From an uncultured archaeon (lineage in GTDB: Archaea > Asgardarchaeota > Lokiarchaeia > Sigyniarchaeales > SOKP01), in contig CAZDTP010000084.1 of assembly GCA_964508365.1 (NCBI GenBank), forward strand, positions 1 through 13,180: a stretch of DNA of 13,180 bases, in the 5' to 3' direction. The notes beneath the pieces were generated by a model that was not told the origin of the DNA, ran no database searches, and saw nothing but the letters and a program-made list of their open reading frames with translations. The translations under genes were made by a program, and so were the position numbers. This document shows, piece after piece, positions 9,926 to 13,134 of the stretch (the first letter of the stretch is position 1; each line of letters begins with the position of its first letter).

Positions 9926-10270
9926 TTAAATATAAGAGGAGATATCTTCAAATTTGATCTTATAAATCTCACTCCAAGTATCAAACTCTTCTTGTGTCAA
10001 TAAATGAAATTCAAACGGATGACTAAGCGGTAATCCCGATTTTTCTTCTATGTTGGCAATTATTTCTGCTCTTTTTAAATGTTTTTTAGGGACTTCCGCA
10101 ATAATTAGAATATCGATATCACTAGCAGCTACTAAATTTCCTTCAATTATACTCCCAAATAGATATATCTGAGATTCATTTAAAACAAGTTTAATGTTCT
10201 TGTAGATTATTTTCAAGTATTCTTTATGATTTTTAATCATATCTTTAGTTCTAATCATTAGATCTAACAT
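9926..10270 (-). CDS. Minimal nucleotidyltransferase (MNT), antitoxin-type partner of HEPN
   Basis: IYLFGSIIEGNLVAASDIDILII is an exact GS-X10-DxD motif, with third acidic strand FEFHLLT. ATG at 10270 (MLDLMIRTKDMIKN...) is preferred over the TTG at 10279. Overlaps the HEPN stop by 20 nt. Confidence 0.9.
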   Translation of the reverse strand: MLDLMIRTKDMIKNHKEYLKIIYKNIKLVLNESQIYLFGSIIEGNLVAASDIDILIIAEVPKKHLKRAEIIANIEEKSGLPLSHPFEFHLLTQEEFDTWSEIYKIKFEDISSYI

Positions 10271-10634
10271 ATTCAACAATTTTTTTTATTTCTTCTGCAA
10301 TTTTTATCGCTTCTTCAGCGTCTTCTTTCTCATAAGTAAAATTAAAATATCTAGAATTCAAATAAGCACTTTCAAGAAATAATAGAGCTTTTCTATCGTA
10401 TTTAAACTCATCATGTTCTGTTAACTCATATAATAATGCAAATAATTTTCTAATCGAATGAGTTTTTGGTAATTCTCCTCCTTTTTCAAGGATGATGGCT
10501 TTTGTTGTAAGTTGAACAGATTGTTCTGCCATAAAACATGTTAAATCCCAATCTTCTTTTTGAAATCTCTCTTTCGCTCCATCTAAAAAGTTTTTAGCTC
10601 GTTTTACAAAAAGCTCTACTTCATCTTTATGCAT
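10251..10634 (-). CDS. HEPN domain protein (COG2250/PF05168-like)
   Basis: RAKNFLDGAKERFQKEDWDLTCFMAEQSVQLTTKAII...PKTHSIRKLF...LESAYLNSRY...EDAEEAIKIAEEI is the typical HEPN helical pattern with THxI and YxxxRY motifs. TTATATAG TATA-like box about 24-31 nt upstream of the ATG. Confidence 0.92.
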   Translation of the reverse strand: MHKDEVELFVKRAKNFLDGAKERFQKEDWDLTCFMAEQSVQLTTKAIILEKGGELPKTHSIRKLFALLYELTEHDEFKYDRKALLFLESAYLNSRYFNFTYEKEDAEEAIKIAEEIKKIVEYVRSND

Positions 10635-10940: not shown

Positions 10941-12134
10941 ATGATTCAATTTACAGAGGTTTTAGGATTTAGCAGTGTGATGCCCATAATCCCATTTTTA
11001 GGGTTATCTTTAGGTTTGAATGCGTTTCAAGTTGGTTTAATTCTTAGTATTTTTAGTATATGTCAATTATTCGCTAGTCCAATTACAGGGAAACTTAGTG
11101 ATAGATTTGGTAGAAAACCATTGCTATTATTCAGTCAAACGAGTACTTTTATAGGATTTATTCTTTTGGGATTTGCCAATAATGTCTGGATATTAGTTGC
11201 AGCACGTCTTGTAGATGGACTCCTAGGAAGTAATATGACCGTCAGCCAGGCGTATATTAGCGATGTGACAAATCCAAAATATCGAACTAAAACGTATGGT
11301 TATTCAAGCGCGGTTTTTGGTGCTGGATTAATTTTTGGACCAGTGATTGGAGGATTATTATTATCAATTAGCTTTTCAGCTCCCTTTTTTTTTGCTGCTG
11401 GAATTAGTCTTCTCTCAATTATATTGGTATTACTCTTTTTGCCTGAATCGTTAACTAAAAAAGAGGAAAAATTAGATTTTAAGCTTGGAGATATCTTTCC
11501 TACTAAAGAAACTAAACGATTCTTTAAAGCAGCTGAAATTCGAGGTCTGCTTGTGGTCTTTTTCATCTATAATTTCGGATTTTTTCTATTTATCACAACA
11601 TTTGCAATATTTGCTGCTAATCAAATTAATGTTTCTCCCCAAGAGGTAAGTTTTTATATGGCTTGGCTTGGTGTTCTTAGGGTCCTTTTTCAGAGTGTTC
11701 TCATCAATCCTTTAGTGAAAAAAGTAGGTGAAAACAAAACTCTAGCAATAGGTAATTTTGCGATGATTTTTGCGATGGCAATCCTTATATTTTCTACTAG
11801 TTATTTGATTGTATATCTCCCATTTTTCTTTTTAGCATTTGGAACAGGTGTAGTTCGCCCAATTCTAACTAGCAAACTAACTAAAGCCGTTAAAAAAGAG
11901 GAAACTGGTAGTGTACTAGGCGTAAATAATGGATTAACCAGCATTGGTCAAATAATTAGCCCAATTCTCGGCGGATTTATCTTACAATTTCTACCAACAC
12001 AAACTCTCCCAATTTTATCAGCAGTCATATTCGTACTCATATTTCTCCTATGGCAATGGGCATTTGGTAATTCAGTTCAAAAAGAAAAAGAGCAACTACA
12101 AAAATCAGAAGAACAAGTAATTAATTTAGAATAG
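10941..12134 (+). CDS. MFS transporter, DHA1/TetA-like drug:H+ antiporter; true N-terminus probably upstream of 10941
   Basis: Motif A GKLSDRFGRKP, motif B-like ILVAARLVDGLLG, motif C GAGLIFGPVIGG, about 12 hydrophobic segments. The frame is open upstream to 10875 (SLISSTPTAQDKKFDKRLLIIF-M). Confidence 0.9.
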   Translation: MIQFTEVLGFSSVMPIIPFLGLSLGLNAFQVGLILSIFSICQLFASPITGKLSDRFGRKPLLLFSQTSTFIGFILLGFANNVWILVAARLVDGLLGSNMTVSQAYISDVTNPKYRTKTYGYSSAVFGAGLIFGPVIGGLLLSISFSAPFFFAAGISLLSIILVLLFLPESLTKKEEKLDFKLGDIFPTKETKRFFKAAEIRGLLVVFFIYNFGFFLFITTFAIFAANQINVSPQEVSFYMAWLGVLRVLFQSVLINPLVKKVGENKTLAIGNFAMIFAMAILIFSTSYLIVYLPFFFLAFGTGVVRPILTSKLTKAVKKEETGSVLGVNNGLTSIGQIISPILGGFILQFLPTQTLPILSAVIFVLIFLLWQWAFGNSVQKEKEQLQKSEEQVINLE

Positions 12135-12159: not shown

Positions 12160-12756
12160 TTAGGTTTTATTATTAAACTTCTCCCAAATGTCTTTTGAGA
12201 TATTTCGTAGATTATTGGTAAAATCTGATTTAAATCCTTTTAAAACCTCGTTAAATTCTTTTCCTAAATCAGTCCATTTTAATCGATAAATAAGGTATTC
12301 CCAATCTATTATGTTCGTGTTAGCTATTAAAATTTGTAAAATATCATTTATATCCGTTGAACTACGATCAGATCGCCCTAGTTTTGTTAGGATATAATCT
12401 TCAACGGATAACACATAAACATTAGAATAGAATTTTTGGATTCTATTTACCATCTTTTCATCCCAACGAAATGTGTCACAAGGTTGTAGCCAGATTTCTG
12501 CTTCTCCACCCTTTCCGAATACAGTAAACAAATTGTGATTTATTTTAGGCGCTTGAACAGTTGAAATCTCATGTTTTTTTAATATATTAATGAATTCATT
12601 TAATTCCTCTTGATTTTTAATATAGATACAAAGATCGAGATCCAAAGTTGATCTCGCTATATTATAAGCTGGAAGTGCCAAACCCCCTATAATTACTATA
12701 GGTAAGTCGCAAGAAGCTGCTGTTTTTAAAATTATTTGAAGAAGATCACTATTCAA
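12160..12756 (-). CDS. Nucleotidyltransferase of the DUF6036/DUF2204/AbiEii-like (MenT-like) group, putative toxin
   Basis: IVIIGGLALPAYNIARSTLDLDLCI (GG-x-A...R-x-T-x-D-x-D) and VLSVEDYILTKLGRSDRSSTDINDILQIL (K...R-x2-3-D-x2-D). TTG start overlaps the upstream small ORF stop. Confidence 0.8.
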   Translation of the reverse strand: MNSDLLQIILKTAASCDLPIVIIGGLALPAYNIARSTLDLDLCIYIKNQEELNEFINILKKHEISTVQAPKINHNLFTVFGKGGEAEIWLQPCDTFRWDEKMVNRIQKFYSNVYVLSVEDYILTKLGRSDRSSTDINDILQILIANTNIIDWEYLIYRLKWTDLGKEFNEVLKGFKSDFTNNLRNISKDIWEKFNNKT

Positions 12757-12907
12757 CTTGAATCAACTTGAGTAAATCTTTAAAGATCTGTTCTCTGGTT
12801 TTTCCTCGCTCAATTAAGCGTTGAAATTCCTCTACTTTTTTATACGCCCTTTCTATATCCGAAAGAGTAACATAGATCGGAGATCGGGTTTTTTTCTTCA
12901 CGGTCAT
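12749..12907 (-). CDS. Small 52-aa helical protein, putative antitoxin/partner of the downstream nucleotidyltransferase (not in the ORF track)
   Basis: Translated by hand: MTVKKKTRSPIYVTLSDIERAYKKVEEFQRLIERGKTREQIFKDLLKLIQVE*. ATG at 12907, AGGA about 6-9 nt upstream, TTATAAA at 12947-12941. The TAG at 12751-12749 overlaps the TTG start at 12756 by 8 nt. Confidence 0.72.
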   Translation of the reverse strand: MTVKKKTRSPIYVTLSDIERAYKKVEEFQRLIERGKTREQIFKDLLKLIQVE

Positions 12908-12940
12908 GTTTTTCCTATAGATATAATGTAATTAATCCTT

Positions 12941-12947
12941 TTTATAA
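12941..12947 (-). promoter_or_regulatory. TATA box candidate for the small ORF-nucleotidyltransferase operon
   Basis: Minus strand reads AGGAAG-TTATAAA, a purine-rich BRE-like run followed by TATA, 34-40 nt upstream of ATG 12907. Confidence 0.45.
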
Positions 12948-13134
12948 CTTCCTATGGATTTCTTATATATTAAGCCTAGAAGTGATGTAATAATGAATTA
13001 TACTATCAAAAACAAAAATAAGGATTGTCATATAAGTATTAATTCGTGAAACTCAGCTTTTATTCTTAAAAAGTATAAAGTTTATACCATTATAGGTAAT
13101 TGATTAAAAATCATTCTTATTTGAATCAATCATT

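Follow-up and report, generated by a model that had tools for sequence, protein, structure and literature searches.

Nucleotidyltransferase (NTase) toxins of Mycobacterium tuberculosis, the MenT proteins, add nucleotides to the 3′ ends of tRNAs, and one of them, MenT1, is neutralized by MenA1, a short helical protein encoded upstream. To our knowledge, MenT-type NTase toxins, which block tRNA acceptor ends, have been characterized almost only in mycobacteria and streptococci. Type II toxin–antitoxin (TA) modules carry a DNA-binding domain in the antitoxin for autoregulation. In AbiEi/AbiEii and in MenAT3/MenAT4 (a COG5340 antitoxin with a DUF1814 NTase), the antitoxin has an N-terminal winged helix and a toxin-directed C-terminus and is followed by the NTase toxin; AbiEi and MenA3/4 are ~200–300 residues long and end in a domain that is NTase-like or kinase-like. 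The MenAT1 pair consists of MenA1 (Rv0078B) and MenT1 (Rv0078A), for which the structures 8an4, 8an5, and 8rr5 are available in the PDB (PMC10435456, PMC11375011). MenT1 toxicity requires D41, K137, and D152, and T39 is the site of auto-phosphorylation (PMC10435456, PMC11375011). In E. coli, MenT1 is not toxic (PMC10435456).

We analyzed a gene pair in a 13,180-nt stretch of DNA from an uncultured Asgard archaeon (the window), which a preliminary description of the sequence had taken to be an archaeal TA pair of the MenA1/MenT1 type. As in MenAT1, the NTase has ~190–200 residues, the same fold, and the same T-x-D-x-D, K, and D catalytic residues, and it is preceded by a short partner (52 residues here, 68 in MenA1) that has two helices and lacks a DNA-binding domain; the face on which the partner is predicted to bind also matches the MenA1 pockets of MenT1. 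The pair differs from MenAT1 in its archaeal host and in its enzyme, which belongs to Pfam DUF6036 and not to AbiEii/DUF1814. Unlike MenA1, with which it shares no detectable sequence or fold similarity, the 52-residue partner comes from a family that is otherwise fused to a winged helix-turn-helix (wHTH) domain. Furthermore, the MenAT1 complex has a 1:2 composition, whereas the pair was modelled here as 1:1, and the addition of CMP to tRNA is known for MenT1, whereas this pair is known from its genes.

Organization of the gene pair

The window has a G+C content of ~31%. The features relevant to this study are as follows.

12749–12907, minus strand: small ORF of 52 codons with an ATG start, whose translation is the candidate antitoxin or regulatory partner
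12160–12756, minus strand: NTase ORF of 198 codons with a TTG start, DUF6036 with a MenT1-like fold, candidate toxin
12749–12756, minus strand: 8-nt overlap TTGAATAG, with the NTase TTG within the last codons of the small ORF, suggestive of translational coupling
12941–12950, minus strand: TATA-box-like element AAGTTATAAA, about −43 to −34 from the small-ORF ATG, putative promoter of the cassette itself
12634–12687, minus strand: catalytic loop GG-x-A...R-x-T37-x-D39-x-D41 (NTase codons 24–41), equivalent to T39/D41/D43 of MenT1
12343–12402, minus strand: motif ED...K125...D135..D138 (NTase codons 119–138), equivalent to K137, D149, and D152 of MenT1
10251–10634, minus strand: HEPN-domain protein (PF05168, E 4e-31)
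9926–10279, minus strand: minimal nucleotidyltransferase (NTP_transf_2/Polbeta)

The last two genes overlap by 29 nt and constitute a second TA-like pair in the window (9926–10634, minus strand).

Both ORFs of the cassette and the 8-nt overlap between them were found as the preliminary description had given them, with an ATG start for the 52-residue protein and a TTG start for the 198-residue NTase. An ORF list with a cut-off of 60 residues would miss the shorter of the two. The overlap measures 8 or 11 nt in most orthologous loci. Among the 19 loci in which the NTase match begins at residue 1, the start codon is TTG in 15 and GTG in 2 more, and the TTG is embedded in small-ORF codons for a conserved V/I-D.

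Of the two expression signals that had been proposed for the small ORF, the TATA element was borne out: when the 130 nt upstream were aligned for ten orthologous loci, it was conserved as AARTTATAAA and was the sole conserved block, the rest of the upstream sequence being divergent among these loci. Judged by this pattern, AARTTATAAA is plausibly a TATA box of the archaeal type, from which a transcript start near 12920 and hence a short leader would be predicted. The proposed AGGA signal is present 5′ of the small ORF at 12913–12916, but it is not conserved among the orthologs and is therefore a weak ribosome-binding signal.

A single metatranscriptome run yielded one matching contig of 207 nt, which spans 12696–12901 with 13 differences and covers nearly all of the small ORF together with its junction with the NTase; the remainder of the NTase had no cover in the same run. 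Since this contig represents a relative's sequence at a depth of 2.7, and since the RNA library may contain DNA, transcription of the cassette is not demonstrated by it.

The NTase is a DUF6036 protein with a MenT1-like fold

The NTase matched Pfam DUF6036 (PF19502) with 33.7 bits (E 3.8e-8) against a gathering cut-off of 23.6, and with 30.1 bits in the genome-wide search. Its relatives carry the NCBI name “DUF6036 family nucleotidyltransferase,” and the closest of them in the databases are labelled Promethearchaeota, which makes the host an Asgard archaeon of the Lokiarchaeia type. AbiEii/DUF1814 (PF08843) was absent from its Pfam hits even at E values up to 10, so that by sequence the relation to AbiEii/DUF1814 is one at the superfamily level only. 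Neither the NTase nor the small protein gave anything meaningful with the NCBIfam and PADLOC libraries. Pfam describes DUF6036 as a “nucleotidyltransferase of unknown function,” with neither a function nor a partner; we found no paper mentioning the family in the literature, and a review of archaeal dark matter has nothing on it. One homolog cluster (P0077, 290 residues) carries, besides the NTase, a precomputed TGS domain (PF02824); it could have arisen by fusion or from two genes called as one.

The relationship to MenT1 emerged from both profile and structure comparisons. A phmmer search of the PDB with the single NTase sequence returned nothing, and MenT1 was reached only via the family profile, which found it by sequence alone with an E value of 3e-11. 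The AlphaFold2 (AF2) model of the NTase had a pLDDT of 91.9, and in a Foldseek search with this model MenT1 occupied ranks 1–3 (E 5e-6; TM 0.64–0.68). Structure alignment against PDB representatives likewise placed MenT1 (8an4_A) at the top, with a Z score of 16.2 and an rmsd of 2.6 Å over 170 of 195 residues. The next-best chain had a Z score of 10.9, and ANT(2'')-Ia, LnuA, TM1012, JHP933, MenT3, and MenT4 trailed at Z 8–10 (MenT3, 9.6; MenT4, 8.3). The grouping with AbiEii, DUF6036, and MenT proposed in the preliminary description thus stands as far as DUF6036 and MenT1 are concerned, MenT1 being the best structural match by both methods, while no Pfam match supports its AbiEii/DUF1814 part.

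An alignment of 40 family sequences, reaching down to 20–30% identity, revealed invariant columns at G24, R35, D39, E119, and D138 and nearly invariant ones at G25, T37, D41, D120, K125, and D135. The motifs previously read from the sequence, GG-x-A, RxTxDxD, and K...R..D..D, could accordingly be located as G24-G25-x-A27, R35-x-T37-x-D39-x-D41, and K125...R128..D135..D138, and their positions are invariant or nearly so in this alignment. In the HMM alignment, MenT1 T39, D41, D43, K137, D149, and D152 correspond to T37, D39, D41, K125, D135, and D138 of the NTase, which therefore retains all the MenT1 catalytic residues.

The small ORF and its relation to winged-helix partners

Among 27 loci drawn from GTDB genomes of Promethearchaeota/Hodarchaeota, a profile of the small ORF matched the ORF next to the NTase, on its upstream side, in ~26. 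The remaining locus (L022) is masked by N, yet its upstream ORF still ends in LIHVDK. Within the genus, tblastn and the small-ORF profile likewise matched the ORF that immediately precedes the NTase in orthologous loci, and in the sample taken across the phylum a small ORF was found at adjoining coordinates in all 13 genomes that had a close NTase. Conservation of an ORF of ~50 codons next to homologous NTases, on which the preliminary proposal depended, is therefore seen in essentially all 27 loci and in 13 of 13 sampled genomes. Differences between orthologs fell on codon positions 1, 2, and 3 in the numbers 1366, 483, and 2415, and of the codon differences 1769 were synonymous and 1544 non-synonymous. 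This pattern is one of purifying selection, and the small ORF is accordingly a genuine gene.

The databases hold 56 clusters of the small protein (44–64 residues), all of them unnamed and none with a Pfam domain; twelve positions are invariant. The AF2 monomer model (pLDDT 81.5) showed an extended N-terminus followed by helices at residues 15–33 and 38–51, in line with the two helical segments noted earlier, and the absence of a helix-turn-helix (HTH) or other DNA-binding domain was likewise seen in both the Pfam results and the AF2 model. Profiles of the small protein had no match among PDB sequences, and the MenA1 chain (8an5) did not appear at E values up to 10. Foldseek with the small-protein model returned only noise (E 7.8 or more), short helical proteins being hard to compare in this way, and a search of the ESM Atlas produced nothing of use. 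The suggestion that the partner represents an unrecognized family was thus upheld by the lack of Pfam, NCBIfam, PADLOC, and PDB matches and of similarity to MenA1. We also considered a ribbon-helix-helix identity (CopG/Arc/MetJ), suspected from the pattern of strand, helix, G-x-T, and helix, but dropped it as the main reading; ribbon-helix-helix families were absent from the Pfam hits of 28 small-protein members (E up to 1) and from the PDB profile searches, and the domain borne by the homologs is a wHTH.

The relatives of the small protein were found in other archaeal DUF6036 loci. In Bathyarchaeia, Hadarchaeales, and Nitrososphaerales, the overlapping gene upstream of the NTase encodes a protein of 123–162 residues with an N-terminal winged helix, which gives weak Pfam PadR/ArsR/HTH_27 hits and bears the JGI names of PadR/MarR/ArsR regulators. 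The last ~45 residues of these partners align with the 52-residue protein: hhalign of six winged-helix partners against the small-protein alignment gave a probability of 94.4% and an E value of 9.5e-8 over 43 columns. The segment equivalent to the extended N-terminus of the small protein aligns as a linker after the wHTH. A combined profile retrieved 95 clusters of such longer proteins, and in further Asgard families, too, DUF6036 NTases are preceded by partners composed of wHTH and module (L048–L051).

Because of its homology to the C-terminus of the winged-helix partners, the 52-residue protein is, as judged from the alignments, the stand-alone form of the C-terminal, NTase-facing module of a regulator-type partner; in the same terms, it has the classic antitoxin layout, a DNA-binding domain plus a toxin-directed tail, minus the DNA-binding part. 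The wHTH–module partners of Bathyarchaeia, Hadarchaeales, and other Asgard archaea resemble AbiEi and MenA3/4 in layout. Their C-terminal part differs, being a two-helix module of ~45 residues, and in the window the wHTH is missing altogether. The 52-residue protein also departs in this respect from type II TA antitoxins and from its own wHTH-bearing archaeal homologs. Hence, the comparison with MenAT1 made in the preliminary description holds for the MenT1-like NTase and for the architecture with a short upstream partner; the partner itself shows no detectable similarity to MenA1 and is homologous instead to the C-terminus of winged-helix partners.

Distribution, genomic context, and decay

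The cassette is present in one copy in the source genome, and close orthologs occur in 5 of the 25 genomes of the genus, the pattern of an accessory gene. Among 300 genomes sampled across the phylum, 13 had close orthologs of the NTase (E 5e-46 or better). No related sequence was found among viral contigs or PLSDB plasmids. Just downstream of the NTase lies a convergent gene for an MFS transporter (10941–12134, plus strand), which is kept in the five closest loci (it is present at L011, L012, and L013 and duplicated in L010, L010:3126–5593). Since the same convergent neighbor is kept in these five loci, inheritance looks vertical within the clade; this and the negative searches of viral contigs and plasmids count against the toxin reading. 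Upstream neighbors differ even among the five, and beyond them all flanks are different, the MFS gene being missing from loci that include L014 (70% identity). The gene pair is the only element constant across the flanks and is therefore the conserved unit.

The MFS neighbor invites a reading in which the NTase modifies a small molecule, as ANT(2'')-Ia and LnuA do, and works together with the efflux pump, the partner being a mere regulator. These two enzymes are indeed among the next-best structures (Z 10.2; Foldseek ranks 4–5), and the conservation of the transporter in the five closest loci and its duplication in one of them point in the same direction. MenT1 is nevertheless much closer both in fold and in sequence profile, the transporter is encoded on the other strand and absent from the distant loci, L014 included, and a regulator that has no DNA-binding domain and is predicted to sit on the active-site face would be ill-suited to a resistance operon. 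We therefore consider this reading quite unlikely.

Several loci have lost one or both genes. The NTase is interrupted and the small ORF whole in L030, L032, L033, and L039, and further cases of this kind were seen in G204, G210, and G207, some of which may be the same genomes as these four loci. Disruptions of the NTase only outnumber those of the small ORF, although this excess is not significant given the lengths of the genes (597 vs 159 nt). The whole cassette has decayed at L014:2326–3090 (the same locus as L003, in genome G021), where stops occur in both genes: two Q codons of the small ORF have become in-frame stops, and the NTase has several stops and a change of the invariant G25 to R. 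Most of the changes at this locus are transitions. Five solo small ORFs stand without an NTase. One of them (L044:953–1983) is followed by a VapBC-like pair, with one gene for an AbrB/SpoVT-like protein and one for a protein with a PIN domain, suggestive of a small toxin–antitoxin island, and another (L043:977–1571) by a 75-codon HTH-like ORF. An intact NTase without a small ORF was not seen in the clade, either in the loci or in the phylum sample.

The pair accordingly shares several traits with type II TA systems, namely a partner-first overlapping operon, a patchy distribution, a variable context, and orphans of the small ORF only, the counts being small and the genomes related. The asymmetry between decaying NTases and persisting solo small ORFs fits a toxin and its antitoxin.

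It also bears on the assignment of the two roles. MNT antitoxins AMPylate HEPN toxins, and by analogy the NTase could be the antitoxin that nucleotidylates a toxic small protein; a HEPN–MNT pair lies in the same window, and the Asgard peptides almost always have Y at position 22. The small ORFs that persist without an NTase speak against such a reversal, as do the upstream position and the wHTH fusion of the module, which are antitoxin-like. Moreover, Y22 is replaced by F in L005 and by A or V in the wHTH-fused homologs, and a soluble two-helix protein of 52 residues has no toxin-like features. Reversed roles therefore appear extremely improbable.

Predicted complex of the small protein and the NTase

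Complex modelling at 1:1, which had been suggested as a check on the pair, predicted binding, with an ipSAE of 0.85 in three runs and 0.00 for the best of three controls, a score to which the modelling program's familiarity with the MenAT1 structure 8an5 may have contributed. The ipSAE mark was benchmarked on solved complexes, 58 of 80 of which reached it, and on mismatched pairs, 2 of 110 of which did so. The runs shared at least 90% of their contacts, and the partner had a pLDDT of at least 79.

On the NTase, the predicted interface comprises residues 25–26, 29–30, and 32–40 (the GG and the R-x-T-x-D loop), residues 127–145, which form the helix bearing D135 and D138, and the C-terminal helices; G25, R35, T37, and D39 of the catalytic loop are buried in it. 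On the peptide, it extends over residues 7–50 and includes 9 of the 12 invariant residues, D17, R20, F28, and F42 among them. MenA1 is bound by L8, A93/V95, L120/L123, and the F38 loop of MenT1 (PMC10435456), and in the profile alignment these positions are equivalent to interface residues 5–6, 83–84, 109–110/113, and 32–40 of the NTase. Together, these models support binding of the small protein to the NTase over its active site.

Whether such a partner inhibits the enzyme or assists it depends on further considerations. With a pI of 9.8 and a KKKTR tail, the small protein is basic, and the NTase is acidic (pI 5.5), the reverse of the usual basic toxin and acidic antitoxin; this counts against a TA pair and fits an RNA-recruiting subunit as well. 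The two proteins could then form a heteromeric enzyme in which the 52-residue protein acts positively, for example as a subunit or adapter for RNA recruitment or for the choice of nucleotide, the NTase being non-toxic and having a housekeeping or stress role. The strict co-occurrence and coupling of the two genes, the presence of the cassette in single copy, and its absence from the viral contigs and plasmids searched would all suit such an enzyme, and MenA1 is known to alter the nucleotide preference of MenT1 (PMC11375011). A subunit of this kind would not be expected to bury G25, R35, T37, and D39, as the predicted interface does, nor to persist alone while the NTase decays repeatedly. The distribution is also patchy even within the genus, and the fusion of the module to a wHTH in relatives is antitoxin-like. 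On balance, we regard a heteromeric enzyme as unlikely.

Proposed function of the pair

The computational checks named in the preliminary description came out in favor of its interpretation. We favor the reading, with a probability of roughly 60%, that the pair works like MenAT1, that is, that an NTase of the MenT1 fold is held inactive by its short upstream partner. The conserved TATA promoter would drive a single transcript of the two-gene operon, from which the 52-residue protein would be translated first and the NTase from the weak, overlapping TTG, so that the partner would be in excess. With its catalytic centre intact (T37, D39, D41, K125, and D138), the NTase would, by analogy with MenT1, extend the 3′ end of an RNA by nucleotides, the acceptor end of tRNA being the most likely target, and in its free form it would probably be toxic and stop translation. 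According to the predicted complex, the small protein would dock on the active-site face via both helices and its extended N-terminal segment, cover the catalytic loop (residues 32–40) and the D135/D138 helix, and thereby keep the enzyme inactive; it might also induce auto-phosphorylation of T37, as in MenAT1. The partner in this Asgard clade would thus be the bare module, without a DNA-binding domain.

More tentatively, the module of ~45 residues could represent an archaea-wide family of NTase-neutralizing partners that control MenT1-like DUF6036 enzymes, an extension that we consider possible but doubtful at present. Its members would be fused to a wHTH in TACK archaea, Hadarchaeales, and some Asgard archaea and would occur as bare 52-residue proteins in Asgard archaea of the Lokiarchaeia type. 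They would cover the catalytic loop and possibly induce T37 auto-phosphorylation, and in the bare form dosage control by TTG-coupled translation would replace DNA-binding autoregulation. If this holds, the MenAT mechanism would reach beyond mycobacteria into the archaea to which eukaryotes are related.

For DUF6036, a family without literature, the present results provide a concrete, testable link to MenT1 and identify a conserved, previously unannotated family of upstream partners. The occurrence of the ~45-residue module both alone and fused to a wHTH amounts to a natural dissection of an antitoxin into neutralizing and DNA-binding parts. Should the MenAT1-like reading prove true, the pair would be a compact toxin–antitoxin system of Asgard archaea in which a MenT-fold enzyme is inhibited by a peptide of minimal size. 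Systems of this kind being already known, the advance is an incremental one.

Two further observations concern other Asgard DUF6036 NTases. At L052:564–809, L053:584–814, L054:572–856, and L055:358–822 (coordinates on the NTase strand, which for L052 and L053 is the reverse complement of the locus), the NTase has another overlapping upstream partner, a helical protein of ~75–95 residues that starts with K-D-I-E-R...G-A-D-P. The module profile gives no match to it, and it may be a distant relative of the module. In addition, in contrast to the single copy of the source genome, the Asgard genome G086 (family f23) has DUF6036 NTases that match on separate contigs, five in all and two or more of them with partners composed of wHTH and module, indicating a local expansion.
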